DNA of 64,000 nucleotides from contig NC_090380.1 of NCBI RefSeq assembly GCF_036365525.1, forward strand, positions 82,221,658-82,285,657. The letters are read 5' to 3'. The position numbers and the translations under genes are program-made. Origin of the DNA: Heterodontus francisci. Its lineage: Eukaryota. The notes below the pieces were generated by a model. The model saw nothing but the letters and a program-made list of their open reading frames with translations. It was not told where the DNA came from and searched no databases. This document shows, one piece after another, positions 1 through 43,789 of this stretch (position 1 is the first letter of the stretch; each line of letters begins with the position of its first letter).

Positions 1-1
1 T

Positions 2-361
2 ACTCCCGTGTCGGGGAATATGAAACACTGCCCTAACATAATATCTTCCTCTATCCTCGTCACAGGTACCTAACGCTCTGTTAGTTAAGGTCAAACTTCT
101 GTTCCCTCTGGTATACCCAATGTCGTTCCCGCGCACGCCAACCCATCCACTCCCGCATAATACAAACTTAAATCTTCTCGCTATCCTTTGTTGGTTCGAA
201 CTATCTTGATCTGCCACACAAAGTTGTTTCTGGCCACGGGATAGTCTTCCCGCGTCGACACTGCGTCAACGTTCATTCGTTGCGATAGCTCCGATGCGGG
301 TTCACCTCTTATCCCATTTTAAGTCCAGTCTCTCCATATCTTGTTCCCAATTTGTTCTGAT
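2..361 (-). pseudogene. Decayed reading frame downstream of ERV-A integrase (probable start of env or an accessory gene), runs off the window
   Basis: One frame reads IRTNWEQDMERLDLKWDKR*TRIGAIATNER*RSVDAGRLSRGQKQLCVADQ...FVLCGSGWVGVRGNDIGYTRGNRSLTLTNRALGTCDEDRGRYYVRAVFHIPRHGS. Both stops are TGA in Arg contexts, consistent with CGA decay. Confidence 0.4.
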
Positions 362-592
362 TCTAGCCGTCCATTTCTCCTAGCCCACTTACTTTCCCTG
401 TTTTCTTTTTCTTTCATTTTTTCCCTCGATTTCCCTCTGTATGTGGACGTACTACTTCAGGTTGTCTTTCAAACACTTCCGCTTGGATCCGCAGTTGATC
501 CTGCTCTTGATCTCCCTGACCTTCGATCGGAACATCGGTAGCATCAAGCATCACATGCCAACTGTGATTATCTTGTTTTTCTCCTACTAACT

Positions 593-3500
593 TTAACTGA
601 TGTGATACCAGCCACTCTTATCTGGTGCCGACAATACTTTGTATACAGATAGACTAGCTTTATCTACTATCTCATAGGGACCGGTGAACTTTGGACTCAA
701 AAATTAGGTGGGCTCGTACATTCTGATCATTACCCTTTGTCCGGGGCTCAACTCTATCGGGCTGGCTTTCGCATCGAAATAAGCCTTACTTTGCTGTCTC
801 TTCTTTCCCTGTTGGTGAGCTGCCACGTAATTTGCTTCCCTCACTGTTTCTACTAATTGTTGTACCCATTTTTCTCGTATAATACTGTCGACCTCGGGTT
901 CGGACTAGTCCAAACCTACCAACCCCTCCATTCCTCTCATGTCCCTTCCCGTCATGAGTTTATAGGGAATTTAACCTGTTGATGAAGCTACGGTATTCCT
1001 GATTACCATCAACACATAGGGCAGAACAACCTGCCAGGTCACCTTGTGCTGCTGAACCATTTTAGCTATCATGTTTTTCAATTTCCGATTCATCCTTTCC
1101 ACAATATGGGCGGCGCAGTGGTTAGCACTGCAGCCTCACAACTCCAGGGACCAGGGTTCGATTCTGGGTACTGCCTGTACGGAGTTTGCAAGTTCTCCCT
1201 GTGTCTGCGTGAGTTTTCGCCAGGTGCTCCGGTTTCCTCCCACAGCCAAAAGACTTGCAGGTGGTAGGTAAATTGGCCGTTGTTAATTGTCCCTAGTGTA
1301 GGTAGATGGTAGGGAACATGGGATTACTGTACGGTTAATATAAATGGGTGGTTGTTGGGCGGCACAGACTTGGTGGGCCGAAGGGCCTGTTTTAGTGCTG
1401 TATCTCTAAATATAAATGTAAAATAAATATAATTCCACTAGACTGGTCTATAGTGTATGTGGAATTTCTGTTTAACCCCAAAGAGGGTCATGACATTTTG
1501 CATTACTTGGGCTGTAAAATGTGTTCCCTGATCTGATTCTATGCTTCAGGGTAAACCCCACCGAGTGAATACCCTTTCTAACAGAATTTTCGTGGTGACT
1601 TTGGCTGTATTTGTTCTGGTTGGGAAAGCTTCCACCCATTTGGTAAACGTATCTACTATTACTAGAATGTATTTAAACCCTCCTGGAGTGGGGGGTAAGG
1701 GTCCTACATAGTCTATCTGTAAATTAGTCCAAGGCCCTTCTACTGGTCTAGTATGTCGGAGGGCCCCTTTCTTGTCATTCCTATCGGGGTTGTGTTGTGC
1801 ACAGATCAAACAATTCTTGACGTAGTGTTCCACGTCGCCTTTCATTCCAGGCCACCAGCACACCTCCTTTATCCTTTCCAGGGTACTCTCTGTCCCTTTA
1901 TGTCCCCATAAGTCATGGTACCAGTGGATTATTTGGTTTCGTCCTGCCTCTGGCACTACAAATTTTCCTTCACATAAAACCACTCCGTCCTGAATATAGA
2001 CGCCCTTGTACTCTTAGTATGTGTCTGACTCTACTCCTTCTATCAGTTTTTTCAATTCTCCATCTTTCTTCTGCTCCTCTGTTAAATCCATTACCTTAAC
2101 CTGTTTCCCCTTCTGTTCCCCAATGTCCTCAATCGGTGGCTGCCATTCCTGCCCACTAACAGCACCTTGTTTGGCTAGCTCATCCGCTTTACTGTTCCCT
2201 TCTGAGTAAGTTTTGAATGAGCTTTTACCTTCGTGATCCCATATCCTTTCCCCTGTGCTCCTTCAAGGATGTATCTTAATAATGGGGCCGATGGAAGGGG
2301 CTTCCCATCTGCTGAGACAAAACCCCTCGCCTCCCATAAGGGCAAATCTTCTGTGAGGCTATTACAGACATACATGCTATCAGAATATATAACTGATCCG
2401 GGCGGGAAGTATTCTGGGTGGCCAACCACATATGCGACGGCTGCTAATTCTGCCACCTGCGCACTCATTGTTTTAGGCAATTTTAAGGCTGCGCTAAACT
2501 TTTCCTGACCATGTTTGTCTTCTACATATATCCCGCACCCAGTCCTCCTCTCACCATCTTGTACTGATGAGGAACCATCCACAAAAATTTTTAAGTGGGG
2601 TTCTTCTTTTTCCTTTTCATCTTTACTTTCTGTCTCCGTTGCTTTCTCCAATGCACTCCTACCCCCTCCTTTTTGTTTTGATACAAATGGTCCCTTGGGA
2701 TCATTTGCTATCATGACTTGACACTCATGTTTCTCTCCTTGATACACTAGGTTGTCTGCCAACATAGTGGTAGTTTTTACTCCTTTCACGCTTATGTTTC
2801 TTCCCTGCAACAATAGTGTCCACCTAACAATTCGGTTCTGACTTACTGACCCATCTTTGATCCTACCGTCTAATAATAACTGTACAGGGGTATGTTCTGT
2901 CAATATTGTAAGTGGGTTCAGTCCCACTATGTAAGTAAAATACTGTACTACCCAAAAAACTGCGAACAAATGTTTCACACATGTCGTATACCCCTGCTCT
3001 ACCGGTGAAAGCATACGCGAGGCATATGCTACTGGTCTCAATTTGCCGTGTGTCTCCTGTAACAGAACTGCTGAGAAGGTGGTGTCTGTGGTAGCTTCTT
3101 CCAATGAAAACGGCTCAGTTGGATTTGGGGTTTGCAGAGCAGGCGCAGCAGCTAGTGCCTGCTTTAAATCTGAAATGGCCTGTGTGTGTTTGGTTTTCCA
3201 CTCCCACACTACATTCTTTTTCAATAGTTCCATTAATGGAGCTGCTTTTGTTGCGAATCCATCAATGTGGTCTCTGCAATATCCCACCAAACCCAGGAAA
3301 GATCTCAACCCTTTTACATCCCTCGGGACAGGGAGTCTGCCAACCGCTACTACCCTTTGTTGGTCAATTTCTCTTTCCCGGTGTCAAGATCATTCCCAAG
3401 TAAGTAACCTTCTGTTTCATAACTTGTGCCTTTTTAGGGTTTACTTTTAGTCCCAATTCGTGTAACAACTGTAGTAATTCACTTAGTAACTGATAATGTT

Positions 3501-4593
3501 CCTGTTCCGTTTCAGTTTGTAGCAGTAAATCGTCTACATTCTGCACCAGACATTCAGGCTTTGAGAACCTTTTTAACCATTCCCTTAAACGTTGGTGAAA
3601 TATAGACGGGGAATTATGAAATCCCTGTGGCAGGGCGGTCCATATATATTGTCCTTGAAAGGTTAACGCAAATTTATATTGGCATTCCTTCTCCAGTGGA
3701 ATAGACCAAAAACCGTTACTTATATCTAAAACAGTGAACCACTGTGCATCCTCATTTTGTTTAACTACCGTCTCTGGGCTAGTTGCTACGGTAGGGGCCG
3801 TTAACGGGATTACCTTATTTAATTCTCGATAGTCTATCGTTCGTCGCCAGCTACCGTCCGGTTTCCTCACCTGCCAAATAGGTGAATTGTTAGTGGAGGC
3901 TACCGGTCTTAGTATCCCTTGTAGCAGCAAACTCTGTATCACCTTTCCCAACTCCTCTTCTGCCTGTTTTGGAAAACCATACTGCTTCTGTGGTTTGAGG
4001 TCTGGGCCCTGTCTACACACACTCCCGGTCATTTTCCCACAATCATGTTTATGTCGAGCAAATACTACTGAATTCCGTGTGATAATTTGTTGTACTTCAC
4101 GATCGCTACTCATTTCTTTTGGTCTTGTCCACAATTCCCCGAACGTGCATATCCTATCCTGGTATTCCCCCACCGGGACGGATGTGTGATCTATACTACC
4201 CATGCCCAAGGGCATTTGCCAAATTGTGCAATTAACAGGGTCAAAACAGAGTCCTGCTTTAGCCATGTAATCACGCCCTAATATTTGTTCTTGTTCTTCT
4301 CTGGGTAACTCAATGAGAACCACGGAGTGCTCTATTGCTACGTCCCCCACACTAACTTCCAGCAGTACGCTCACATATCCCACTTGTGAATGTCCTGTGA
4401 ATCCACGTAAAACAAGTTTACTTTGAATTTCCCAATCTACTTTACTAACATTAGTGGTGTTTACGGTGGTTCGGGATCCTCCAGTGTCCCAAAGGAACGT
4501 GACAGGGCGGCCTCCAACCCTACCATTCACTAGGGGTCTCCCTGTGTTATCCCACCGCGTGTCACATACCCATAATGGAGAGGCCTACGACCG
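593..4593 (-). pseudogene. pol: ERV-A pol (protease, RT, tether, RNase H, integrase with GPY/F tail), disrupted by stops, frameshifts and a SINE
   Basis: PR FLWDTGG; RT LDISNGFWSIPL, WTALPQGFHNSP, NVDD (decayed YVDD); tether RPVAYASR; RNase H IFVDGSS, AQVAELAA, YSDS, KAH; IN HHCC (HDLWGH..CLIC), QIDYVGPLP, ESDQGTHF, IVERMNR (after the SINE), KFTGPYEI. Confidence 0.92.
1108..1428 (+). mobile_element. tRNA-derived V-SINE (HE1-like) inserted into the ERV-A integrase
   Basis: GGCGCAGTGGTTAGCAC A-box, GGTTCGATTC B-box, V-domain GTGCTCCGGTTTCCTCCCACA, CR1-like tail GGGCCGAAGGGCCTGT and AT-rich end; splits the IN motif SSGI|VERMNR. Confidence 0.88.
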
Positions 4594-6143
4594 TCATTGT
4601 GGTTCAGGATACAACCCCAAAGACGGTGCTATCTCTAGTATATCACATTGAGGATTTGACCTATTCGGTCCTTTCATGGGTAGGCTCTGGCGTTTGTTCT
4701 GACCTCCTCCCCGACCTACATTTTCTCGTCTCAGGTTTGGGCATTCTCTTTTGAAATGTCCCTCCTGGCCACAGTTATAGCAATGGGTTGGCCCGCCCGG
4801 AGTTCTCCCTGTTCCTGGGACGGATCCCCTCCCAATGCCTCTACCCCTTCCTCCTGTCTGAAAGGTTGGGTTAGCGTTCTCAGCCATCGGTTTCTAATCT
4901 CTGGCGTTGGATTGGCTCTATCTAGGTTTGCGCCATATACCCCTTGAAACACAGCCCAGATGCGAGCTGCAAACGCAACAGGGTGTTCACCTTTTCTTTG
5001 ATAGCATTTCGTTAGCACCTCCACTGGGTCCCATCTATTAGCGCCCATGACATTTAATGCTTGTTCTTTTAAAGCCTCATTTGTGCCTCTACTGAGTTTT
5101 TGCTCCTCTGGTAGGGCGGAGCGTATGTGTGGGTGTAGGCACATTATAATTAATTTTCTTTCTTCAGCATCATCTAAGCCGTGTATTCCTCTCTGTTGAC
5201 TGACCGCTTGGAACAGCTCCCTAGGATCATCCCCGGGTGCGCACGTCCCAATATCTTTCGCAATATCCCTCAATTGCTGTACCCCCATTGGAGTGGAATA
5301 TGCCATACGCGGGCCAGCTGCCACCTGGCCATCAGCCCCTATCGCTGCCCTAGTGATCACAAGGGGGGCCGATGACTCCTTTGGCTCTGGCTCATATGCG
5401 GGCGGAGGATCCTCGGGTAGAGGGTCTCCATCATCATAGCCGTATCTAGCCGCTTCGTCTGCGAACTCATTCCAATCTATGCCCCCATCACCATTTTCCT
5501 CACTTCCTTTGGGTGCAAAAGCACAGATTATACCTCTCTGCGTGGCTAGCTGGTCTTGCAGTCTCGCTATGTATTTTTGACACTTTGTGTGATAACCTGT
5601 ATTACTTCTCTTTTCCTGAGCTGCTCTCTGAATCACATTCATGGCAGTTTTTAAATCACTACATTGCTGCTTCCATCCTTCCACCTCAGCTTTAGCTGCT
5701 TGGGCTTCTCCCTAACGCCTACTTTTTTCCGTAACTAGTTTTTCACACTGTAACTGATATTGGTTCATATGCATCAAATCCTCACTTCTCTGTCCCTGCA
5801 AATCAGTTACTTTTTCACTAAGGTGGGCTGCCTCCTCACGGAGTTTTTTAATCTCCTCCTCTAGTCTGTTCTGCTCATTTTTAGCCTGCTGTTGGCATTC
5901 TATCCATTCCTCAAGTAAACAGCCGATAGCTACTGACTTCTGTATCTTTTTAAATTTCCTAGCTGACATCTTTGCTTGTGCAGTCTTCCAAAGGGCTTCC
6001 CCTACAGGTTTTCCCTTGTCGCTAGTGTGACCAGCATATTCTCCGTATTGCGGCCACTTCGCTATTACATATTTTTGGAGGAATCCTTTCCAATCAAAAC
6101 AATCCAAGTCTCCAAAGTTTGGAGATTCCCTTTGTTTCATCAT
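4594..6143 (-). pseudogene. gag: ERV-A gag: N-terminal long coiled coil, PPPAYEP proline-rich segment, capsid-like region, Gly/Arg-rich linker and CCHC zinc knuckle
   Basis: ORFs 5712-6143, 4731-5684 and 4594-4887 join across one in-frame stop and one frameshift; CYNCGQEGHFKRECP knuckle; heptad-rich segment QNRLEEEIKKLREEAAHLSEKVTDLQ. Confidence 0.85.
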
Positions 6144-6251
6144 CTTATGTTAGTAGCTACAAATTAACCCCTAAGTTCCTTTCTGTCTGTACTTTGCCAA
6201 TTCGGTTCGACTCGAGTCTCCCGCTGATTCAACAGAGAGATTTATCCTCGA

Positions 6252-6269
6252 GCCCACCAAGGGACGCCA
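6252..6269 (-). promoter_or_regulatory. Primer binding site, tRNA-Asn(GTT)
   Basis: Minus strand TGGCGTCCCTTGGTGGGC(TCGA) vs the complement of the vertebrate tRNA-Asn 3' end, TGGCGTCCCTGGGTGGGC(TCGA): 1 mismatch. Confidence 0.85.
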
Positions 6270-6273
6270 ATTA

Positions 6274-7047
6274 TGTAAACCGTGGCACGGAGTCAACTCC
6301 CCCTGTCCCCTTTATTCCCTGTACCCAGTTGATCCTGGCCGTCACATGGGACTGAAGTCCTCTTAATTCAGGCTGAGGCTGGGTGTTTGGGATATCGGAT
6401 TTCAAGAGAGCCACCCTCCAGCTTAATCCACAGCTACAGTTAATGGCTTAGTACAAAGAGGAGGAACTCAGTCCTTTCTTTAACTATCAATTTACTTTAT
6501 TCACCTTGTTGTACAATGTAAGAATAAGGCTTATACACTTGGTTAGACAAAAGCATGCAATTCAAACTGAGTTATACAGTTAATAACAAAACCAGCTAGA
6601 ATCCATAAGCACACCCACTAGGTTCCTCTGACCTTTCCCTGACTGAGTCACAGAAAACTTAAGGATAATACCCGAAAAAGGGAGAGTTAACGCTGGCCAG
6701 GCGTTCCGTTCTCTCTCTCTCTTCTACATCGTCGCCGCATCGCTCACGCAGGGTCTTCTGCTTCCACGAAGGTTGATCTCCGGAGTTTTCGCTGGCTCTA
6801 TGCCCAAAAAGCTCTATTCTTATCCTGTTGCTTATCTCTCCAAATCTGAGCTGTGTCTTTTCGGTTGGCTTAAGCTTGCTCACCTTGTTCACATCCTCTT
6901 AATTGGCCCAGGCCCAAAGACCCTGGTATCACACTGTGTCCAAATAAGGCCCTTTTCCTGTGATCGATCCTTTGTCTTGTCTCAAAGTAATTAGTTCAAA
7001 CTGGTTTTTACCAGCACAGGCCAGTGTCTGAGCTCCAGCTTACTACA
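6274..7047 (-). repeat. 5' LTR of ERV-A (~774 bp)
   Basis: Minus strand begins TGTAGTAAG (7047) and ends GTTTACA (6274), 4 nt before the PBS. AATAAA occurs on the minus strand near 6311-6316 and 6496-6501. The partner LTR is outside the window, so the outer boundary is inferred from the TG..CA ends and the switch to Gypsy sequence. Confidence 0.7.
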
Positions 7048-7382
7048 GGTCAAACAATCCCAGCAGTTTGTAACTGATTCTGTATTTCTTGCAGCCCCTG
7101 GCCAACACTAACATGTCTGCAACTGAAGGTGGTAGCTCTCCAAGCCAGGGTGAAATAATTCGGGATAAGTTAAAAGCACTGTCTGTGGAAGAGTTGAGGA
7201 AAATGGCTGAGCAGTGTGGGATCACTGTACGTGATGAGGCTAGGAAGTCTGAACTTGCAAGGCTAGGAGGTCTGAACTCCTAAGGCTAGTGGCTAACCAT
7301 TTTTCCCTTAAATCTGAAGAAGCAGAAATAGGGTTAGAAGCAGACCCAGACAGGGTAGTGCTAGCAAAGATACAATTGGAAC

Positions 7383-7782
7383 TGTAAGGGTGAGGGCTTG
7401 CCCTGGTACCCAAAAAACACCTCGAAAGTCAGATGTCTTATTCAAACGAGCAATCTTTATTACGAATATGCAAGAAGTCCTACTCTCATGAATGATCGTA
7501 GGGATTCCACCAGTTCAATGTTTGAGCAATCAATTTATATAGTTACGGGAGGTTTACTTGACAAGCTGTTTTTTTTAATTACATCATCTTCCCATCTTAC
7601 TCTCTTCCCTGATCTCATCTTTCCTTGATCATCCTTCCTCGATCATAGTATTCACTTTGTCAATCTCTTGATTAGGTTACTCATTAGTTCTCTCTGTCTC
7701 ACAGACAAGTTTTTCTCAAGTTTTAACATCTTTGGTTTACGCCAAGTATCCCATGAACCCCATACGCTAGCGTCCCCTTACA
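7383..7782 (-). repeat. 3' LTR of ERV-B
   Basis: TG...CA termini, diverged and ~43 bp shorter copy of 12622-13064; preceded on the minus strand by a decayed PPT AAAAGTGAGGTC. Confidence 0.9.
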
Positions 7783-8074
7783 GACCTCACTTTTGGCCCT
7801 TGGCCAGCGGCTGGCCCCAGGTAGCCATTATCCTAGAATCCTCTGACTGTCAAATAATCTGTGAATCCTACCGGTTGCAATGAGCTTCGGATCCTTCCCT
7901 GGCATCCCTTTACGACCTCACCTGTGTCCTAGTGACCAGGCTTAGTCTGGGATTGATCCTTTGCATTGTGCTACATAAATTACAGCAATTTTAGTCAAGT
8001 ATGCAGTACTCCCAGGGTAGGCCACTTCAGTTCCCCCTTTTAGCCCTTGGCTACTAATGGCTAACTAATGCTAA

Positions 8075-8848
8075 CGTTAAGACCAGTTGAGAAAGGTGTC
8101 TAGGGGTCTGTTGCAGTCTTCACTTGATCTTATTGTAACAGGGTTTTATTTTTAAACACACTGTGTTTTGAGCTTCCAGTTTGTGAATCCTTCTTCACAG
8201 CTTTCCAATTATAAGGCAAAGAAATGAGCATAAACAGGCTTTCTCAGGTTTAAGGAAGGAACGCGAAATTTATTAAGACTTAAACTCTAATATGGTTAAC
8301 GCCTAGGGATATACGATGTGCCCATGCTAGCATTCACACACGATACACGTGAAAATAGGGTCAGAAAAGAGCAGAAGAAAAATAAAGTTAAAAAGTTTGA
8401 GGCAATCTCTGAACAGAGTTTTTTTTACTGTGCTTCAAGCTCGCTGTAATCCTTGATTGCAGGTAGTCTTGCTTTTCGTTGGGGCCCAGTATTCTTCTTA
8501 AATCTTGTTTACTGTAAGAGACTTTTCTCTCTTAGTCTTCAATGGTTTCCGATGCTGGTGTGAACGAAATGAGAGCAGACAGGAGAGAGGTCTTATCAGT
8601 CCAGGAGAAAGGTGCTTTCTGAGTTCACATTTCTTGATGGAAGTTCAAATTCAAAAAACTCCAACAGGCAGTCAGTCAAACTGGTCTGCCCACTTTTTCT
8701 GTGTATTGGGGAAGCAACTGTTCCAGCACTGTTGGTTACTGTGTAAATATCTTTCCAATCAATGGCTTACAATTTTTAAAAAGTTTTAATGTTCATGCAG
8801 CAAAATCATGTGGGCCTCAGTCTTGGCGGGTGGGGGTTTTGCCTGACA
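8075..8848 (-). mobile_element. Solo LTR of the Gmr1-like family inserted inside ERV-B
   Basis: Reverse complement aligns by eye with both ends of 15225-16049; flanked by CTAA/TTAA, a 4-bp TSD with 1 mismatch. Confidence 0.75.
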
Positions 8849-8929
8849 TTAAGTTCTCCTTACTCCATCACTGTTGGCCTGACAGGCAGTTAGATTTGCA
8901 CGGTTACATTTTCTAAATTATGTCAAACA

Positions 8930-9690
8930 TCTCAATTAGGTACCAGGGTATAACATAAATCCGATAACAATTAGTAACTGCTCCGCCACCCGTATATGGG
9001 AAGCAATTCTAAACCGGGGTGAACATCCACCCTAATACCCCAGTCCCAAACCATCTCCCACCACGATGCGTCCTCCAGTTCGGCTACCATATCCTCTCCC
9101 AGTTGTTTGACCTATTGTTGGATTCGGTGATATTGCTTCATTGCTGTCCGGGTCTCTTCCCTCACCTTCCGCAGACGTTCCAGCAGTTTAGGGATTCAGT
9201 TTCCCTCGGGAAGCAGGTATGTCAACAAGACCTCCGTTAGATTGTCGGTTATGTTCATCCACTCCCTAGGGGGAGGCTGGATGTGAGTTATCGCCGAATG
9301 TCCGATTGTTGTTGGGGTCCGGGGGTGGAAGCAGAAACTTGAGTTGATCACTGGGCAGTGGATGTCACTGTACTGGTATCAAGGTTTGCTGGTGGTCACG
9401 CAGTATTCCCATTCTCCACGGTATGCCACCTGCGTCGGTTTATGGCGGGTACTGGAAATTTCAAGGGTACAGTTTAGGGTAATATTAAAACCATGCACGG
9501 TTCTCATCCCTATCCCTATGGGATGTGGACAGACAGCATTATTCCCTACACTCAGCCAGCGAGATCCCGCAAGGAGGGAATCTCTCTGGGTTGCGTATTT
9601 GGGTACGAGGTAGTACTTTGGCCAATTGTTATCTCCCATGATCCCTGTATTTTCTACCCCAAGAAGGGTTTGGATGCCGCTGGTTCTTTA
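8930..9690 (-). pseudogene. env: ERV-B env remnant, class I fusion glycoprotein resembling paramyxovirus/pneumovirus F1
   Basis: GIQTLLGVENTGIMGDNNWPKYYLVPKYATQRDSLLAGSRWLSVGNNAVCPHP..GFNITLNCTLEI..QVAYRGEWEYCVTTSKP*YQYSDIHCPVINSSFCFHP, then heptad repeat LLERLRKVREETRTAMKQYHRIQQ*VKQLGEDM, Trp-rich SWWEMVWDWG and a hydrophobic TM-like segment; several N-x-S/T sequons. Confidence 0.72.
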
Positions 9691-10444
9691 GTGTTTTACT
9701 AGCATGTTGGTTAATTTCAAATCTAATATAAAATTCCATTTAAACATTGCTTTGCTCAATATGATTTAGTAGTCAGCAAACTCATTATAGCTAACAGCTG
9801 TAATTCATTAATAAATACTGACTGGCTCTACACAATTATTCTAGCAATTCAATTTTTTTTAAATTGAGTTACAATTGAATTAGTGAATTCAGCTGTGCAG
9901 TTCAGCCATGAAACTAGCCAATGTTCTCATGTACACTTAATGGAATCCAACAACACCTCTCGTTCAGGATACGAATAAGAACAGATTACCCAAAATGGGC
10001 CAATTCACGTTGGTTAGACAATTTAATAACAAATAATGTGAATAGAACTTAATCCAACATGTACCTGCATACAGATAGAATAGGGGTTATAAAGTTAGAA
10101 CTACAGTGGGTGATACTGACGCTAGATTTATGCATGACTGCTTTAAGTATAAAGGGAACCTTCATTACCACGCTTTGCAACTTCAGGCACTGTTGTTCCC
10201 CATTCCCAACTGCCCTGAGCTGCTCCTTAGGCATACTAGTTTGTTAACCGTGACATTTAACTCCATGTGCCCGATCGCAATTGGCATTGCTCAAGTTCTT
10301 ATAGAACCTGCATTGTTAGGTCCCCCAGTCAACTGACTTGGTTCTTTCCAGGCTTGTGGTTGCCAGACATTTCAGCAGTACTGCGGTTTTCATGGTCCTG
10401 GAAAGAGAACGTCGCGGATGCCAGTCGTCACCAGTTAGTCATTA

Positions 10445-10720
10445 TTATTTGCGTTTCCATACTCCTTGATCTGTGTCCAGTGTTTCCACCGGCCTTTCCC
10501 TTCCACATCCACACGTACAAGTGTTGCTGGTCATCGGGACCTCGTAAGGTCCTTGCCAGCGAGATGCTAAGTCTGGTTTTGCAAGTAGGACCCTAACAAT
10601 CACTTGATCCCCTACCCCTGGCAGCTTTTCCATGTCTGATAAAATAACTTCCAAGTTCTGATGTTCCCTACTTAACTACATTGGAATTGCGTCGTCTTTA
10701 ACTTGCTGCAGAAGTTTAAA
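10445..10720 (-). pseudogene. pol: ERV-B integrase C-terminal remnant (GPY/F module)
   Basis: PGVGDQVIVRVLLAKPDLASRWQGPYEVPMTSNTC; the rest of pol is deleted. Confidence 0.75.
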
Positions 10721-11099
10721 AGGCTAAAACTGGATTTCTGCCGGACTTTTACAAGGCTCCAGACTTATCTTTATATTTGGAAAACAAACTGGAGCTTCAT
10801 CCCCAGTTGCCAGTAGTTAGTGCCAGTATGTCTCAGTTTTAAAATCGCACTGAAAATCACAAATTCAAGCACACAAACATCGTGCGCCCAAATAAAATAA
10901 ATAAATCCACACACACACCCCCACAGACAGAAAAGAGTATCACGTGTGTTTAAAGGAAGGAAAACAGAAATAAATCAATTACGTCAATGATCCCAATTCT
11001 CCCTTCTTCAAATGTCTTGCAACAACTATAATTAGAAACTAAAGGAAAAAGATAAACTCTCACAAGCAGACAAACTCCAAGAGGTTATGCAGCAGCCTT

Positions 11100-11640
11100 T
11101 CACAGTCATTCTTTGATGAGTATTCTGAACTAGCTGATATGTGTCCCCTTTTCTGAGGCCCATAACCCTAGCAACCCAAGTCTTCATTTCATCACAGGTA
11201 CCTCGAGCCCTTCCTCTGGTAGGGCTGAGTAAATCTCGCTCCTGCTCAGCTTCACTACACCTCTGCTTCAATAATCTCTCGTCTGCTTCCCTCTTTTCCC
11301 TTTCCCTTGATATATCTGCACAATGTGCCTTCAGGAACTCCACTTTCCCGGCCCACCAAGCTGTCTCTTCCATATGTCTGGGTCATTCCTCCTCTCGTTT
11401 ATCCCTTTCTTTCTGTAATTGACTCTTTGTCAAGTTAACTATGGCACACCTATCTTCCTTCTCTTTCCTTAATTTACTCAATTCTAACTCCAACTGTCTA
11501 CGCTTTTCCTCCTGCTGCTTACACCTAGCCTGATACACCAACAGCCAGACTGCTTTAATTTATCTGTCTTTACATGTGGACCCCTGCATCTACTGTTCTG
11601 CCTCACCAACAGGGTCATCTGAAATTTGTACAACTTAAAC
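11100..11640 (-). pseudogene. gag: ERV-B gag-like coiled-coil remnant
   Basis: Reads ...KAVWLLVYQARCKQQEEKRRQLELELSKLRKEKEDRCAIVNLTKSQLQKERDKREEE*PRHMEETAWWAGKVEFLKAHCADISREREKREADERLLKQRCSEAEQERD; occupies the gag position after the PBS. Confidence 0.55.
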
Positions 11641-11783
11641 ACTCCTATTTATCATAGCTTCTTCTAGCTTCTGCTTTTAACTTGCACCAATTTAATACAA
11701 CTTCACTCAGACGTTTCACACACATTCACATTTACCATTCAACAATTTCTGAACACACAAAGAGACCAAACACCAACATAGAC

Positions 11784-11785
<2 letters not shown>

Positions 11786-11816
<31 letters not shown>
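11786..11816 (+). repeat. (CA)n microsatellite
   Basis: About 15 perfect CA units. Confidence 0.95.
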
Positions 11817-11817
<1 letters not shown>

Positions 11818-12601
11818 GTTTTTCTTCTTTTGTCCTTTCAACAGCATTCTAGATTACTGTGGTATTTCCAATGTAATTTCTACCTATCGTTTCCTGAAAC
11901 TTGTTTCTATCTCTGGACTTGTTTCTGGACTGGCTGTTAATTTGTTTCTGCTTTTGGAAATGTTTGTGGACTCGCCGGCAGAGTCCCATATAATAATTGA
12001 TTCTAATCCGAATTGCTTTATCCTTCAGACTTTTCTTTTGGCCCTTCCACCATGCTCTTTGCACTTCTGGGGTGGGGGGTGTCATTAGATTTCTACCCAT
12101 CCTTTTTCATTTTACTGGTCAAGTTCTCATCTGCTATAAACCTGGTAAGGAAGTCCCCAATCTAGACCTTCTGCACTATTGGTCATTCTGGCAGGGTGTG
12201 GTCTGCCCAAGTGGTATTGACCTACAGGATACGCTTTAAATCCCCTGCTCAGCTCGACCTTTTGTGAAGGTCTGCTTTGCGGTCTCTCTCAACGTGGTCT
12301 CCTGCACGGTAACGGCCTTCAGGATACCTCAAAATTCCTTGCACGCCGTCACCTGCTATGTGGTTCTGTGTTGCGACTTTCTCAGCGCAGCCTTCTGCCC
12401 GGTTCTCTCGACTCGTGACCCACTATCCTGGCACGCGCTTTGATCGCTTGGCACTCGAGTCTCCAGGCTTTGGTTTTTTGATACCCATTTAAAGTACCAG
12501 TCCCACGACTGTGAGGTAGACCTTTCCTAACTATGGATGGTAAAATAAAAGGTACTCACCCCTTGGTTGGTCTCCTCACTGTTGCAGACCCGATGTGGTG
12601 T

Positions 12602-12619
12602 ATCCTGCCGACTACCCCA
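12602..12619 (-). promoter_or_regulatory. Primer binding site, tRNA-Ser
   Basis: Minus strand TGGGGTAGTCGGCAGGAT vs the complement of the vertebrate tRNA-Ser(AGA/TGA) 3' end, TGGCGTAGTCGGCAGGAT: 1 mismatch, 2 nt from the LTR. Confidence 0.85.
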
Positions 12620-12621
12620 AA

Positions 12622-13064
12622 TGTGAGGGTGGGACTTGCCCTGGATCCAAAAACACCTCGAGTCGGATGTCTTGTTCAAACGAGTGATCTTTATTACAAG
12701 CATGCAAGGAGAAGTCCTATTCTCATGAATGATCATAGGGATTCTACTAGTACAATGTTTGAGCAGTCAATTTATACAATTATGGGAGGTTTACTTGACA
12801 AGCTGTTTTTTTAATTACATCATATTTCCATCTTACTCTCTTCCCTGATCTCATCTTTCCTTGATCATCCTTCCTTGATCATATTATTCACCTCGTCAAC
12901 CTCTTGATTAGGTTATTCATGTGATTCCCTCTGACCTTGTCTACCTCTTGATTAGATGATTCATTTGGTTCTCTGTATCTCACAGACAAACTTTTCTCAA
13001 GGTTCAGTATCTTTGGTTTTACGCCAAGTATCCCATGATCCCCATACGCCAGCCTCCCCTTACA
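12622..13064 (-). repeat. 5' LTR of ERV-B
   Basis: TG...CA termini, direct repeat of 7383-7782, adjacent to the PBS. Confidence 0.9.
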
Positions 13065-15224
13065 GAACAAAGGAAACTTGAATTAGAGGAAAAAGAGAGA
13101 GAGGCAGGAGAGGGAGAAAGGGAGAGCCTTCCAGAAGGAATGTGAAGAAAGAAAAAGACAGGAGAGAGGAAGAACCTTCCAGAAAGATTGCGAAGAAAGA
13201 GAGCTAAGGCACCTTGAGTTAACTGTGGTGGTGGGGGGGGGGGTGGCGCGACAGAGTAACCCCAGTGAAAATACGGAGGAACATAATTTAGGGCTGGGTA
13301 CAGAATTGTTAAAACTAGCTCATCTAATCCCAAAATTCAACGAGGAAGATGTGGAGGAATACTTTGTGTCTTCTGAGAAACTGGCAAGGCAGCTAAAATG
13401 CCTAGCTGAGACCTGGTCTCTTTTACTACAAAGCAAGCTAATTGGAAAAGTCCATGAGGTTGACTTGCTGTTGCCAGATGAGAGTTCATCAATGAACTGA
13501 CCAAAAATGCTATCCTCAGGGCATATGAATTAGAACCCTTAAGAAACAAGCTAATCAAACTCATTTGGAGTTTGAAAGAAGTAAGCAGCTGGCCTGTGGC
13601 TGAGGGCTGTTAAAGTACAGCTCAGCTTTGAGAATCAGGGAAGTAGTTCTGTTAGAGGAATTTAAAAACTCCCACTCTCCATAAAGACCCATGTGGAGGA
13701 GCAGTGGGTTCAGGAGCCCAGCAAGCAGCCGTTCTGTCTGATGAGTTTGCTGGGCTCCTGAACCCACTGCTCCTCTACATGGGTCCCTAGTTTGCCTGTG
13801 GACAGGGTTGACCTGCTCCTAGGTAATGATCTGGTGGGGGTGAAAGTGGTAGCCCCCTCAGTTGTGAAAGAAAGACCACAGGAGGTCAGACAGACAGGGC
13901 AGTGGCAGGAGGTGGTCCCCTGAAGTTTCCCTGAATGTGTAGTGGATCAGGCCATGTTCAAACAAGCTCCCCCAGTGGAGACTGCATTGGTACTGCACGC
14001 AAATGACCATGAGGTCTGACTGTCCGAGATCTTCTTTGGAAAATTAGAAGACAAAGGGAATGAATTAAATGGATTATTCCTAGCTGAGGCTCAGTGAGCC
14101 GACCCAGTCTTGTGAGAGATAGCACAGGCTGCCGAGTCTGAAAGTGAAGCAGAGGGAGTCCCTGATTGCTATTATTTAAAGAATGAGGTACTGATGAGGA
14201 AATGGAGTTCTCCCCACAGACCTGCGGGCAAGGAGTAGATAGTAGTTCACCAGTCAGTGGTGCCGCAGAGATACCGGGGAGAGATATTAAGAAGGGCCCA
14301 CGAGACTACAGTGGCTGCACATGCTGGTATACGAAAGACCAAAGCCCGCATAAGACAGCAGTTTGACTGGCCAAAACTCCACAAAGATGTGGTGAAGCAC
14401 TGCAGGAGTTGCCACATATGCCAGGTTGAGGGGAAACACCAACCTACGGAGAAACCAGCACCCCTAAGCTCTGTACCTGTGTTAAGATGAGCCTCTAGCA
14501 GGGGGCTGCTGAACTGTAAGGGATCCCTGCCAAGAACAAAAAGAACAGGCAGGCACAAGGCTGGCAAAAGTTTAGAAAGGGAAGGGGGAGAAAATGACCA
14601 AAAGGGCAGGTTAAAGGAAGTGCGGGAGGACTCCCAGATGAAAACCCCTACTGTCCAGTCCAGTCCGAAAAATGTGAAAAGTTAGACCCCACATCCTGCG
14701 ATGTAAATGCAGACTCTAGAAGCACGCCACCAGAGTTGCTAATAGCATTTACAAGAACGTGCAGAGACAAAGAAAGACCTCTAGCAGGCAGAGAAACCGT
14801 GAGGGTGATGCCTCACCTAGTCGAAGTGTCGCAGGGGAGATCAGTAGAGCCTGCACAAATACCTGCAGGCAGGAGTGTCCCAGAGAACAAAAGGAGATTA
14901 ACAAAGAATCTTCCCCCCACAGTCAGAACCAAAGAGAAACTACCTATCCTCCTTTTCAGACCTCAACAGGAACAAAGATGCTCGTCAGCCATGGAAATGG
15001 GCAAACTGAAGAAAAACTTCCCCAAAGAACCACATAGTTACTGGGGTGCCAAAAAGGGGAAATTAAAGCAGCACTGTCACCTAGAAAAGGCAGTTTTAGT
15101 AAGTTTTAGGATTCATGGATGAATGAGAGAAATGCATGGTTTTTCTGTATCTTACATTTTTCTCAACCCTTTTAATGAAATGCACCTTTTCACAAATCGC
15201 ATTTCATTCCTCTGGGTGTGGAGG

Positions 15225-16049
15225 TGTCATGCAGGCCCTCACCTGCCAAGAATGAGGCACATTAATTTCACCATGTGGACATTAAATTTCAAGTTGTTGC
15301 TGGGAAGAAAAGGCCTGTGACAAGGGGTTGCCAGGCACCTGGCTGGAAAGACACATTTACATATTAACAGACCGTGCTTGTAAACAAAGGAGCTATTCCC
15401 TGCTCCAATTCAAACCACAAACAGACATGGTCAGACCAGTTAGTCACATGACTAACTGGCTGTTGGAGTTTGAACTGAGAACCTGCAGAGAAAGCTGAAT
15501 GCTCCTGAACTGAAGAAGACCTCCTGTCTGTCTGCCTGCTCCCATCACTTTCTCACCTGCTTCCGAATCCATTGAAGACACATGAATCCCAAGAGACAAA
15601 AGTCTCCTACAGTGAAGAAGCTTTAAGAAGAATACTGGGCCCCAACAAAAAGCAAGATCTACCTACAAGCAAGGACTCTTCAGTGAGCTCGAAGACCTGT
15701 AACAAAAACTCTTCAGATATTGCCTCAAATGTTTCCACTTTATTTCTTCTGCTCTTTTCTGTCCCTATCTGCATGTGTGTATCGTGCATGCATGCGAGCG
15801 TGGGTGCATTGTGTATCCATAGGCATTTACCGAATTAGAGTTTAAGTTTAATAAAATTTCACTTTTCTTCTTTAAACCTAAGAAGGCCTGTTTATGCTGG
15901 ATTCCTTGCCTTATAATAGGAATGCGGTGAACAAGGATTCAACAATGGGGTGGTGAAAACGCAGTGTGTTTAAAATTAAACCCTGTTACAGTAAGACCAG
16001 GTGAAGGCTGAAAGGTACCCCTACACCTCTTTCTCACCTGGTCGTAACA
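15225..16049 (+). repeat. 3' LTR of the Gmr1-like element
   Basis: TGTCATGC...GTCGTAACA, preceded by a purine tract; AATAAA near 15850; similar in reverse complement to 8075-8848. Confidence 0.8.
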
Positions 16050-16398
16050 CGAGGTTCTATACAATTGAAGCAAGACTTCACTACTCCTGTACTCAAATCC
16101 TCTTGCTATAAAGGCTAACATACCATTAGCCTTCCTAATTGCTTGCTGCACCTGAATGTTAGCTTTCAGTGACTTATTGACAAGGACACCCAGGTCCTTT
16201 TGTACATCTACACTTTCCAATCTCTTACCATTTAAGAAATACTCTGCACATCTGTTCCTCCTACCAAAGTGGATAACCTCACATTTTTCCACATTATATT
16301 CCATCTGCCATATTCTTGCCCACTCACTAAGTCTGTCCAAATCACCTTGAAGTCACTTTGCATCTTCCTCACAACACACATTCCCACCTAGTTTTGTA
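16050..16398 (-). mobile_element. CR1 LINE RT fragment (target of the Gmr1-like insertion)
   Basis: DRLSEWARIWQMEYNVEKCEVIHFGRRN..KDLGVLV..RSSEVLLQLYRT, cut at the LTR edge. Confidence 0.88.
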
Positions 16399-16989
16399 TT
16401 ATAGATGTCTTCAGAAAGCCCAACAGTAAATTTTGGATAATTTCTTGGTTTGTGGGCATGCCTTGATATTTGTTCATATAAGTAGAGTGTAGCTTATATG
16501 CTGGCTCTGATATCACTGTATGGGGAGTCTGAATTTGCTGAATGTTTGAATGCTTTATTCAGATTTTGAAACATTTGTCTTAGAAATTGGACTGTAATAT
16601 ACAGTCTCTAAATCCAGTCTGATGATGCCCTGTGATGTGATGAGATTATAACATATTCTCAAGTTCATTTGAATTAATATTCAGCAGTCTTAAAAATCAT
16701 CACTGAAATCCAAATTATCAGTCAGGAAAACAGGAGAGCATCTGGAACTTTGTACTTCAACTGTTAGCACAAACTTTTTTTGACATGAGACTAACGGCAC
16801 ATGCAATTCCTTTCTGTGTCTGCGCCTACAATAGCTGTGTAAAACAAATTAGCATGTTGCTGTTTAGGATATTGATGTAAACACAAATAGCTGAAAATTT
16901 GAACGGTTCGTATGGCAGGATTTTCATTTCATTCTCATCTTCATGGTGTGTCTCCAATACCTAAAAGGTGCTTGCTGGCAGAAGTATGA

Positions 16990-18955
16990 AGAATTTAGAT
17001 TCTTTTGCCAGTCATCTTAAAACAATGTCCTCTGGTTCTGGATCCTTCTGCCAATGGGAACAGTTTCTCCCCTCTAGCTGTCCATACCTCTCATGATTTT
17101 GAACATTACTATCAAATCTCCTCTTAATCTTCGCTTCTCCAAGGAGAACAGACCCACCTCCAACCTATTCACGTAACTGAAGTTCCTCATCCCTGGGGCC
17201 TAGAACCATTCTCGCAAATCTCTTCTGCACCTCCTCTCATGCCTTAATATCCTTCCTAATGTGCGGTGCTCAGAATGGACAGAATACTCTAGTTGAGTCC
17301 AAACCAGGTTTATCATAACTTCCTTGTTTTGTACTCTATGCCCCTATTTATAAAGCCCAGTATCCCCTATGCTTTATGGCCTACTTTCTCAACCTGTCCT
17401 CCAACTTTCAAAGATTTGTGCGTACATACCCCCAGGTCCCTCTGCTCCTGCAACTGCCTTTAGAATTAGCCTTTAATTTATATTGTCTCTCCTCATTCTT
17501 CCTACCAAAATGAATCACTTCACACTTTTTTGCATTAAATTTTATCTGCCACTTGATCGTCCATTCCACCAGCCTATGTCCTCTTGAAGTTTATCACCAG
17601 CTTCCTCACAATACATCCAAGTTTTGAAATTTTGAAATTGTGCCCCGTGCACCCAAATCTAGGTCCACATCTCAAATACTTGTGCAGATTTGGTCTCCTT
17701 ATTTAAGGAAGGATGTGAATGCTTTGGAGGTAGTTCAGAGGAGGTTTACTAGATTGATACCTGGAATGGGCAAGTTGTCTTATGAGGAAAGGTTGGACAG
17801 ACTGGGCTTGTTTTAACTGGAGTTTAGAAGAGTGAAGGGAGACCTGATTGAAGTATATAAGATCCTGAACGGCCTTGACAAGGTGGATGTGGAGAGGATG
17901 TTTTCTCTTGTGGGTGAGTCAAGAACTAGAGGGCACTGTTTTAAAATTAGGGGTCACCCTTATAGGACAGAGATGAGGAGAAATTTTGTCTCTGAGGATT
18001 GTGTGACTTTGGAACTCTCTGCCTCAGAAGGTGGTGGAGGTGGGGACATTGAATATTTTTAAGGCGGAGGTAAATAGATTCTTGTTAGACAAAGGAATCA
18101 AAGGTTATCAGGGTAGATGGGAGTGTGGAATTAGAAACACAAACAGATCAGCCATGATCTTATTGAATGGTGGAGCAGAAATTGGTAAAGATGAGATATT
18201 AGCTAGGCTGGCTGTACTTAAATTTGATAAGTCATCAGGACCAGGTGAGATGTATCCAGGGATACTTAGGGAAGCAAGAGTGGGAATTGCAGAGGCACTG
18301 GCCATAATTTTCTAATCCTCCTGGGTGGTGCCAGAATGTTAAACCCTTGTTCAAAAGAGGGTATAAGGATAAGCCGAGCAACTACAGGTCACTCAGTTTA
18401 ACCTTGGTGGTAGAAAATTTTTAGAAATGATAATTCAGGATAAAATTAAGTCACTTGGACAAATGTGGATTAGTTAAGGAAAGCTAGCACCGATTAGTTA
18501 AGGGCAAATCATGTTTCACTAACTTGCTTGAGTTTTTGGTGAAGTAACAGAGAGGGTTGATGAGGGTAATGTGATTGATGTGGTGTACATGGACTTCCAA
18601 AAGGCATTTGATAAAGTGCCATATAACAGGCTTGTCAGCAAAGTTAGAGCCCATGGAATAAAGGGGACAGTAGCAGCACTGATTGAATGACAGGACATAC
18701 AAACATACAAATCATGGTTACATATCCCCCACTCTACCATTACCATCAAACCAGGGGACCAACCCTGGTTCAATGAAGGGTGCAGGAGGGCATGCCAGGA
18801 GCAGTACTAGGCATATCTAAAAATGAGGTGTCAGCCCGGTGAAACTACAACACAGGATTACTTGCATGCCAAACAGCAGAAATAGCATACGAAAGATAGG
18901 GCTAAGCAATCTCAGAACCAATGGATCAGATCAAAGTTCTGCAGCCCTGCACATA
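16990..18955. mobile_element. Cluster of degraded CR1 fragments in both orientations
   Basis: Minus-strand CR1 3' part at ~17000-17660; plus-strand KGDLIEVYKIL (17832), DKSSGPGEMYP and VDVVYMDFQKAFDKVP-like (~18570) segments. Confidence 0.8.
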
Positions 18956-20229
18956 TAGTCAACAGCATCCTGTTTTTGCCAATTATCACTCAGCCCATTA
19001 CGCCAAACTCTTGTATTCAAGAGAAACGTACAGTGCTGACTTCTGGAGATTCCTTTTATTTTCTTGCCTGTTTTCCCCTTGATACAAGTTCTGGAACAGT
19101 GTGATTCCAAATGGATAGCAGTGGAATTGCAACATTTATATGGAAGTAAAAGTCCAGCAACTTTCAACACGTCACTGAGCCTGTGTCCCAAGTGAAAGTA
19201 ACACATGCCAGAGTGTAGAAATCGAGACATTCCCCTAGTGACTTTTCCCATTTTAGAATGAGTTTACATAACACAAGCCTTTAAACTTGTGTTTTAAAAT
19301 AACCTAGCTGCTAGTTTATTTTGAAACACAAGGTTAAAGGCTTGGAGCAGCCAATTTTTGCTTGGGGTGGGGGGTAGAATATTACTTATTTTCATTCAAT
19401 TATTTATACAATTTCTTGATAAAATGAACAATTTAGTGGCAAGTTTTCAGAGTAGCTTTGTACTAAGGACCTAATCGCACTGGGTTCAAACTTAATAGTT
19501 GCCAGAAAGAGGAATCATTTATCCAAACAGACCTGAGCTGGATTTGAACCTGGGATCCAGAATAAAAAGTAATATGCACTGACTCACAATAGTCATCCAA
19601 TTGCTTTAAAAATTAACCCACTATTTTTGTGGTATGTATTATCTTTTGGGTTGTGACACTAATAAGTATATCCTTTACATTTCTGATCAGTGGATCTATT
19701 TGGAGCCTTAATGTATTTTTGCAGTTATTTTATTGGCAGATAGAAGAACACATTTATATATCATAAATTTATAAAGAATCTAAAGTTTCAGATAATTCTC
19801 ACTTATCACAACTCAAATGTCCAGTGATTCTCTAGTTTAACTGTTTTGCAGTTCGTTCATTTTACACCACAGCAAGGATTATGTTGCAACCGAATAAGAC
19901 ATTCTTCAAATACACCTTCAGTCAAAATTTGATTATTTGAGTGCTGAAAGAAATGTCCAGCTTTCAACATTATAAATAACCAATAACACCTATAAAGGTT
20001 ATTTTCGCCATCAATATTTTCAAGCAAAATTGAAATCATAGACAGTTCATCATAGATTAGTTTTTATTATTTATGAAATAATTTATTTTAAATACAATTT
20101 GTTCAATGTGATTGAAAATTATAGTAATCTCATGGGGTTAAAACCAGGCAATAAACATTGTACAGCAGTTTGCAAAATTACATCAGAGTTCTGTCTTTAC
20201 AGCTATTTTGGTCTAAATTTAAAGAACAT

Positions 20230-30730: not shown

Positions 30731-31334
30731 CTAGGTAAATATAACCTATGATAGAGGCAAATACTGATGAAATCCTAGAAACTGAATATTAACAAAACAA
30801 ATTCAAACAATAAGATTCTATATTGGGTAAAAACAAAACAAAAAATCAGCTCAGTCTGGTACCATTCTTCGCACTGATCCAAAAAATTACATAATTTATT
30901 TTCTCACCTATTTCCTCTTCTCCAGGTCACTCACTAACACTATGCTCTCGGTACAGTGGCAACAAATGACCTGAAAGGTAAGGAGACTTACTTTGGCCTT
31001 TCACACTGCCCTTTCTTTCAAGTAGCTGGGTTCAAATGCAGCACAGACTGATGGAAAGAAAGTCGTTCCTCAATCTGCCTGTTGTAATAGTTGTACCCAA
31101 AATCAATTTAGATAGTCACTACCTAGTTCCTAGTGGGCCTGGATCTAAGGCACAAAACTGTCCACAAATTGCACTCTGACCCAAGTGGTTATAAGGATGG
31201 TAGCTATATGAAATTACATTTTTTAAAACCTGAAACTCTCATATTACAAAACACAAATGCCTTAGTTCAATCAAAGATTAAACTATAATTTATCAAATTT
31301 AAATCTTTAACCACACAAATTACTGGGAGCTTAC

Positions 31335-31646
31335 CTATTTTTAAAATGTGGGTGAATACTTGCAGTGTATCTTTGGTTCTGATTTCACAGATATATTCTC
31401 CTGCATTTTCCAAAGTTACATGATGCAGGACAAGTGATGAAGAAGTCTGTTTTTTCAATATTTCTGATTGATTCTTCATACAATTTGAGTGTACATTTTC
31501 ATATTGGTGTATTGATTCACAGATTATCTCCAAAGGAGAGGTTTCTGTTTTTCTGAACTTCCACAAAATTGCCAAATTTTGATCATTCTTGGAGGAATAG
31601 TTTGAAGTAATTACTATGGTTTCACTCTTGTTTTCTTTTTGTTTGC
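31335..31646 (-). CDS. HHLA2: HHLA2-like exon, second IgV domain
   Basis: TTTCAG acceptor and GTAAGC donor, phase 1-1, 312 nt; LAILWKF, SSSLVLHHVTLENAGEYICEIRT. Confidence 0.85.
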
Positions 31647-43195: not shown

Positions 43196-43253
43196 ACATC
43201 ACAACTCAATTCACAGAAAATTCCTTTTCAATGTTAAATAACAAATTTCTGAC

Positions 43254-43580
43254 CAGCCACTTGTAGCAAGACATTTATTTCTCGTTTCCCCTCTGAAGTA
43301 CTGGTGTAACATTGGTACTCTCCTTCATCATCCTTGGTAATGCCTGTAAGCAGGAGGGATGCATTTCCTTTCATTATCTCATTGATGAAAATCTCAGTTC
43401 TTCCTTTGTAGTTTGGATCTTGTTTGGATAGCTGGTCTATTTCTCGATAAAAGCTGTGAACTACAATGGTCCCCTTGGGCAGCTTGCGCATCCAGTGAAG
43501 CACTATTTCAGACAATTTTGTTGGTCGAAATTGACATGGCAAAAAAATGTCCTTGGAAATTACACCTGTGATGCTCCCAT
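43254..43580 (-). CDS. HHLA2: HHLA2-like exon, first IgV domain
   Basis: TTCTTTTCAG acceptor and GTCAGA donor, phase 1-1, 327 nt; DIFLPCQF..VLHW..VVHSFYREIDQLSKQDPNYKGRTEIFINEIMKGNASLLL..DEGEYQCY, a typical B7/butyrophilin IgV. Confidence 0.92.
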
Positions 43581-43789
43581 CTGAAAAGAAACAGAGCAAA
43601 ATTAGTCTTTTCTGGTAAAAAAAAAAAGCTTTTGACATTTCTGATCCAATTCCCAAGTTTCAAATACCAGCCAATGCCTCTTCACCATGCGCTGAAGGAT
43701 CACCAGCAATAATTATGTACAGAATGGACCATTATTGTGGGGGGTAATAAACACACTGGCAAAATAGGGGGTCTATGCCTCTAAATACT

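Follow-up and report, generated by a model that had tools for sequence, protein, structure and literature searches.

A broken multi-copy endogenous retrovirus of the shark Heterodontus francisci with a deep-branching canonical reverse transcriptase, probably near snakehead retrovirus, and a probable F-type envelope related to that of lokiretroviruses

The stretch analysed here, referred to as the window, comprises 64,000 nucleotides of the Heterodontus francisci genome (NC_090380.1:82221658-82285657), and its left end is occupied by a minus-strand provirus with a total span of 8,955 bp, part of which lies left of the window. We consider it highly probable that this is a dead, multi-copy endogenous retrovirus (ERV) in which a deep-branching canonical reverse transcriptase (RT) and tether, likely near those of snakehead retrovirus (SnRV), are combined with an env gene that likely encodes a paramyxovirus-F-type protein related to the envelope of lokiretroviruses. 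The genome searched for further copies was 6.0 Gb; the anatomy was obtained from six-frame reading and Pfam, and the long terminal repeats (LTRs) from self-comparison of eight LTR-paired copies.

7108..7111, minus strand: target-site duplication TTAG, 4 bp, second copy beyond the 3' LTR
6274..7107, minus strand: 5' LTR, 834 bp, TG...CA ends
6252..6269, minus strand: primer-binding site for host tRNA-Asn(GTT), 4 bases past the LTR
4594..6143, minus strand: gag, with one stop and one frameshift; an in-frame TGA ends gag ahead of pro-pol
about 5510-5965, minus strand: Gag coiled coil
4735-4782, minus strand: single Gag CCHC knuckle (PF00098, E 7e-8)
4252..4539, minus strand: aspartic protease
3201..3984, minus strand: RT, active-site motif damaged, frameshift near 3370
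2805..3200, minus strand: tether, a degenerate Ty3-like RNase H without catalytic acids (PF17919, E 5e-23)
2160..2594, minus strand: second RNase H (PF00075, E 6e-15), three acidic motifs in frame
570..2013, minus strand: integrase (H2C2, core and C-terminal domain), interrupted by stops and by a repeat insertion
1106..1443, plus strand: short interspersed element (SINE)-like host repeat of ~340 bp inside integrase, a site at which other family copies have no repeat
1..325, minus strand: env remnant, 5' part, extending beyond the left window edge for about 840 bases
NC_090380.1:82219810-82220645, minus strand: 3' LTR, 1,012-1,847 bases left of the window edge

The two LTRs are 97.1% identical, with a Kimura two-parameter distance of 0.027. 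A first-pass annotation of the window had placed the LTR edge at 7047, had proposed GGTC(A) as the target-site duplication and had suggested that env and the 3' LTR be sought to the left; both were located there, whilst the true edge is 60 bases farther out at 7107 and GGTC(A) sits within the LTR. The tRNA-Asn primer that it named was borne out, with 17 of 18 bases of the primer-binding site matching the host tRNA-Asn(GTT) gene here and 18 of 18 in half of the eight copies; no Rfam match was found in positions 1-20000. Its description of the element as near-complete does not hold: stops and frameshifts break both gag and pol, damage is seen in the active-site motif of RT, integrase holds the SINE-like insert, and env has two deletions, one of ~1,075 nt with its junction at about 100 that is found family-wide and a private one of ~140 nt near 320 that takes out the predicted signal-peptide stretch. 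The provirus is dead.

The first-pass annotation had read the element as a lokiretrovirus-type or otherwise basal lineage from its mix of domains, and those domains are present. The N-terminal coiled coil of Gag is seen as weak Pfam coiled-coil matches and as a heptad signal (p 0.016-0.10) in seven 56-residue windows covering residues 85-224, out of 15 windows scored. The coiled coil had been called SMC-like; an smc-like region precedes gag in some lokiretroviruses, and here the coiled coil has neither an SMC match in Pfam nor a significant match to lokiretroviral Gag. The CCHC knuckle is confirmed. The tether contains the Ty3-like motifs that had been quoted. The catalytic D/E/D present in five gypsy rows is missing from it, as it is from the lokiretrovirus, SnRV, epsilonretrovirus and gammaretrovirus rows. 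The tether is no special intermediate state, in keeping with the published view that its degeneration preceded the separation of lokiretroviruses from canonical retroviruses (PMC7947760). The second RNase H is likewise present, although not intact, given a frameshift near 2200 ahead of its last acidic residue. Since coiled coil, knuckle, Ty3-like tether and second RNase H all occur in SnRV too, the mix does not point to lokiretroviruses.

The closest RT matches are frog and coelacanth proteins annotated NYNRIN-like (about 54-60% identity), followed by SnRV (51-54%), with foamy viruses (38-44%), epsilonretroviruses (42-43%) and lokiretroviruses (37%) farther off. The quoted RT motifs had been called spumavirus-like; they are there, but SnRV fits them better, and among the reference alignments of the lokiretrovirus paper, as available, KPDGSW and LDISNGFWS were found only in SnRV. 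In a first RT tree of 42 rows (18 of 60 extracted RTs were left out, and more in later trees) the element groups with the frog and coelacanth sequences (95/97), then with SnRV (92/89), within canonical retroviruses (98/90), with lokiretroviruses outside. An alignment of RT, connection and tether (381 columns) returned the canonical-retrovirus clade at 100/99 under LG+C20 and LG+G4 alike. Approximately unbiased (AU) tests on RT and tether rejected placing the element (p 0.001) or its clade (p 0.025) with lokiretroviruses, and also grouping with epsilonretroviruses (p 0.0005) or gypsy (p 0.019); for RT alone, with 28 rows, the values were 0.026 for lokiretroviruses, 0.039 for foamy viruses and 0.012 for epsilonretroviruses. 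We take one reference row to be SnRV partly because its RT reads as in the lokiretrovirus supplement, and the labels WDSV, foamy, gamma, delta, alpha/beta and gypsy/caulimo presumably hold, resting partly on motif.

By these trees the element is a deep-branching canonical retrovirus family, with frog and coelacanth elements its nearest relatives and SnRV its nearest named virus; its exclusion from lokiretroviruses is firm for the references used, and a sister relation to SnRV appears likely. The lokiretrovirus-type half of the earlier reading is thus rejected by the RT and the RT and tether trees, and "otherwise basal" is what stands: the element sits on a short branch at the base of canonical retroviruses, with an RNase H that groups with those of lokiretroviruses and foamy viruses and a loki-like env. 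It shares Pol domain order with four of the frog and coelacanth NYNRIN-like elements, which are known here from Pol alone, so that the Env link made below is not extended to them. That the family is itself lokiretroviral, extending their range to cartilaginous fish, is hardly credible. Such a reading would draw on the F-type env, the dual RNase H, a coiled coil ahead of capsid and relatives annotated NYNRIN-like, yet it meets the AU rejections, an RT at 37% identity to lokiretroviruses against 51% to SnRV, and a protease without the long insert of both lokiretrovirus references. The lokiretroviral RT motif is missing from the element and had 0 exact matches genome-wide, exact matching being no proof of absence. 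On the side of that reading, six chondrichthyan genomes in the published lokiretrovirus screen are without an asterisk, which presumably marks them as positives (PMC7947760).

Several results weigh against placing the element beside SnRV at the base of canonical retroviruses. For RT alone, its clade with gypsy is not rejected (p 0.098), nor, on RT and tether, is a grouping with foamy viruses (p 0.30). Support for the SnRV sister relation was 92/89, then 77/73 in the 28-row RT tree and 65/91 for RT and tether, never starred; it is the best tree under LG+G4, and LG+C20 leaves the position of SnRV open. In the unrooted RNase H tree the element falls with lokiretroviruses and foamy viruses (95/95), apart from SnRV, and both tether and integrase score higher against lokiretroviruses than against SnRV. 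Gag has no significant similarity to SnRV or lokiretroviral Gag beyond the knuckle. Furthermore, the only lokiretroviruses among the references were two of the ray-finned-fish type, and Odin, ERV-L, fish foamy-like and CmiERV sequences were left out.

Some of the same results favour a basal offshoot of the foamy-virus lineage, which we regard as very improbable: beside the value of 0.30 and the RNase H grouping, the foamy virus Env is F-like by structure (class Ib; PMC11468914). The element differs from foamy viruses in its CCHC knuckle and in having gag and pol share one frame; it lies outside the foamy clade in all trees, RT alone gives p 0.039, and its Env, compared with 14 foamy Envs, shows no similarity in sequence (hhalign 2%).

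Compared with SnRV, the element has in common, besides the highest RT identity among named viruses, a Gag coiled coil with one CCHC knuckle, an in-frame stop between gag and pol, a tether matching the same Pfam families, a second RNase H, and an Env whose furin site, fusion peptide and cysteine motif match weakly. The SnRV primer is tRNA-Arg, unlike the tRNA-Asn used here, and the RNase H belongs to another group. The Env of about 750 residues has a short tail, whereas SnRV has a 1,134-codon frame and a long tail; with 171 bases from the env stop to the 3' LTR no room is seen for the SnRV 3' accessory open reading frame (ORF), and the SnRV insert between RNase H and integrase is missing. The SnRV genome is 10,688 nt (PMC12193657). 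The RT lies outside the clades of epsilonretroviruses and Ty3/gypsy (Metaviridae) in the tests above, gypsy on RT and tether only, and the first RNase H is degenerate, where Ty3/gypsy has a single active RNase H. Unlike Odin retrotransposons, described as having dual RNase H without env and an RT sister to that of lokiretroviruses (PMC9040795) and not represented in our trees, the element has an env. Its order of LTR-gag-pro-pol-env-LTR is that of canonical Retroviridae. SnRV-like ERVs are known from elephant shark, coelacanth, zebrafish and amphibians (PMC4422223, PMC4977317, PMC6001957), CmiERV lineage I of elephant shark being placed by description with SnRV-like/clade III ERVs (PMC4422223, PMC4977317), and clade III accounts for the majority of chondrichthyan ERV RTs (PMC11089739).

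Pfam gave no match for the gene that follows integrase and precedes the 3' LTR, and the full layout of Env was read from eight longer copies, none of them unbroken. It opens with a signal-peptide-like stretch, an N-terminal domain of ~200 residues and a Pro/Thr-rich hinge, and continues with a core in which a strand-and-helix segment is followed by RKKR, a glycine-rich hydrophobic peptide and a heptad region, and then by cysteine-rich domains and a membrane anchor; the same order is given for lokiretroviral Env and paramyxovirus F (PMC7947760). A profile of the shark and stingray Envs, searched against 275 reference ORFs that include foamy, gamma, epsilon and SnRV Env, matched only the two lokiretroviral Envs (E 6e-9 and 1e-7; the best of 400 shuffles reached 2.4 bits). 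In hhalign the lokiretroviral Env scored 94.7% (E 6e-8) at about 22-25% identity, SnRV Env gave a weak alignment spanning the same motifs (E 0.005), and gamma Env gave nothing. A 20-row profile drawn from the Env relatives described below, searched against PDB, had two Fusion glycoprotein F0 entries as its only matches below E 0.01 (2.5e-4 and 2.9e-4), over 220 positions in the part of Env that the window copy has kept; it was made without lokiretrovirus or SnRV reference rows, its unnamed rows possibly including loki-like members. A 9-row profile matched respiratory syncytial virus F (E 1e-4), a match that is indirect as the profile held lokiretrovirus and SnRV rows. In ESM Atlas the top matches of the longer Env were gypsy Env, Baculo_F and Fusion_gly at 0.94-0.95. 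Taken together, env likely encodes a paramyxovirus-F-type fusion protein related to the lokiretroviral envelope. None of the outcomes that the first-pass annotation had named as contrary to its own reading, an RT within Ty3/gypsy or epsilonretroviruses or a gamma-type env, was found.

Against an F-type Env it must be said that the ESM recognition is under its reliability mark, that searches of PDB with single sequences and a 6-row profile returned no F, and that Pfam assigned no Env family, Fusion_gly included, to any single shark or ray Env. Two AlphaFold models of Env were unusable (pLDDT 39.5 and 31.3), and one Foldseek search gave no match at E<=0.001; as both structure predictions failed, the F fold is a reading of sequence. 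A class III fusogen was also considered, as a deleted 355-aa Env fragment matched rhabdovirus-G/gB-like clusters (ESM Atlas 0.95), and was dropped since the longer copies show a furin site, a fusion peptide and F-type matches.

Among named proteins, those nearest to env belong to Heterodontus francisci itself (86-90%), and 50 relatives were found among 1.84 billion representatives, the named ones coming from sharks, a skate and frogs. Ten were looked up and nine of them bear names, which cover five species of shark or skate and three of frog; one is annotated Ig-like domain-containing and one Niban 1-like. An intact Env of the same family, 745 residues long, is present in the stingrays Hypanus sabinus and Hemitrygon akajei; its identity is 96% across the two genera and 50% to the shark core, its N-terminal domain is unrelated, and it may be a candidate for a host-domesticated F-type fusogen, on which a literature search returned only an unrelated-looking review. 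Neither the RT of the window nor the Env alignment found a relative in scans of a viral contig collection. Two near-complete lokiretrovirus-like elements were seen in metagenome contigs, probably fish DNA.

The element resembles lokiretroviruses, which give its best Env match, in having a dual RNase H, in the group to which the RNase H belongs and in a coiled coil before capsid, and differs from them in an RT and tether outside their clade, a CCHC knuckle, an extra N-terminal Env domain and a short protease region; tether and second RNase H are shared but not diagnostic, as SnRV has both. Such a combination could be a recombinant, with a canonical RT and tether backbone and an env, perhaps with RNase H and integrase, taken from a lokiretrovirus, and it is true that Env, RNase H and integrase all lean that way and all sit 3' of the tether, and that domain replacement is reported to be common in retroviruses (PMC7947760). 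We nevertheless think recombination unlikely. The low Env identity and the spread of the Env family over sharks, rays and frogs mean that any capture of env would be ancient, SnRV Env is weakly alignable across the same motifs, the lokiretroviral RNase H pairs with that of foamy viruses (98/96) and not with this family, and the integrase tree is without resolution; shared retention of ancestral domains accounts for the pattern without transfer. A recombinant history would concern origin, and is compatible with the mechanism set out below.

The LTRs of the eight LTR-paired copies are about 835-845 bp long, and seven of these copies have a clean 4-bp target-site duplication, the eighth having a truncated 5' LTR. 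Every family copy that was read is broken. Genome-wide there are 80 exact matches to a 25-base LTR/primer-binding-site junction, and env gave 116 matches; LTR candidates numbered 1,615, of which 40 were scored. LTR distances range from 0.018 to 0.046 across copies, and the value here corresponds to about 6 million years at a mammalian rate (PMC7947760) or about 61 at a shark rate (PMC4422223), both rates being borrowed. SINE-like repeats have inserted in or near env in five further copies, and the family was found in sequencing runs labelled as three organisms, with identity mostly 90-99%; one run that may be RNA covered the element, which is not taken as evidence of expression.

All eight LTR-selected copies, that of the window included, carry the ~1,075-nt frameshifting env deletion with the same junction. 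Lost with it are the greater part of the N-terminal domain and the whole of the furin site, fusion peptide and first heptad region. Exact 25-mer matches genome-wide were 42 for the deletion junction against 11 for the undeleted edge; a further 30 loci came from a deleted query, and the frequency rests on the LTR-selected copies and the 25-mer counts. In a 43-row DNA tree the 35 deleted and 8 longer copies intermingle (5 changes, AU p 0.095), and mean distances among deleted and longer copies (0.052, 0.048 and 0.053) make them equally diverged, so that the env-deleted copies are not borne out as a later sub-lineage; one burst with recombination fits this pattern. As the copies have distinct flanks and duplications, the variant went through reverse transcription and integration many times with no working Env of its own, either by intracellular retrotransposition or by means of envelope-bearing helpers, the tree being compatible with either. 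Loss of env going along with amplification is reportedly a known pattern, one associated with Magiorkinis in 2012.

The layout suggests how the element would have worked. Transcription would start in the 5' LTR, Gag would end at the in-frame TGA and Pro-Pol would be made by read-through of it, a layout found in five of five copies with an intact junction and also in SnRV. Minus-strand DNA would be primed by tRNA-Asn, with RNA removed by the second RNase H and the first acting only as a tether, and integration would leave a 4-bp duplication. Entry would be through an Env of roughly 750 residues with a signal peptide, a variable N-terminal domain predicted to bind the receptor, the proline/threonine-rich hinge, and an F-like core with furin site, fusion peptide, heptad region, cysteine-rich domains and anchor. 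The variant missing ~1,075 nt of env would have produced the majority of the copies that survive, that of the window included; no two share an insertion event, as each bears a separate target duplication, and the variant would therefore have been copied by its own or helper Gag-Pol, in germ cells or packaged alongside envelope-bearing relatives.

To the right lies what had been called ERV-B (7380-13066, minus strand), an older LTR element with LTRs about 79% identical, no pol match and at least 40 genomic copies at 86-90%; its primer site we take to resemble tRNA-Ser. It was said to be a lineage distinct from the provirus, and LTR and primer-binding site do differ, but positions 9001-9666 carry an env remnant that belongs to the family described above and is related to the stingray Env at E 2e-8. 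A plus-strand gypsy-like element (8076-16048) has an integrase remnant at 14257-14556 and LTR-like repeats in inverted orientation (about 8076-8620 and 15490-16048), with CR1/L2-like long interspersed element pieces farther right. Immunoglobulin V-like exons on opposite strands (31267-31704 and 43234-43659), read by eye, are probably from B7/butyrophilin-like host genes.

F-type Envs have been published for lokiretroviruses (PMC7947760), foamy viruses (PMC11468914) and invertebrate gypsy elements (PMC13524379), the last of these papers setting lokiretroviruses in contrast to canonical retroviruses. A different, filovirus-like shark Env is described in PMC11521997, and the available text of PMC12193657 describes SnRV without assigning its Env type; snakehead retrovirus did not come up in word searches of the available text of PMC11468914, PMC13524379, PMC13709493, PMC12583693 and PMC11089739. 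No paper giving an F-type, lokiretrovirus-related Env for SnRV-like elements was found in a search that mostly did not reach subscription journals. Lokiretroviral and canonical retroviral Envs have been reported to lack significant similarity, leaving four scenarios for the origin of env (PMC7947760); a lineage with canonical RT and an Env related in sequence to the lokiretroviral one provides a third branch, making these scenarios testable by Env trees. An F-type entry protein is likely to be old and widespread in retroviruses, as the resemblance of this env to the lokiretroviral envelope and, less strongly, to paramyxovirus F suggests. Tentatively, and with rather more doubt than confidence, we propose that a shark, ray, frog and coelacanth lineage at the canonical base kept an F-type Env, a loki/foamy-type RNase H and a slowly evolving tether, all of them ancestral, the stingray Env perhaps being domesticated; the ancestral status of the F-type Env, like the receptor-binding role of its N-terminal domain, is something we infer. 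If this is true, the last common ancestor of lokiretroviruses and all retroviruses would have entered cells by means of a paramyxovirus-F-type protein, and the gamma/HIV-type Env would be a later replacement.

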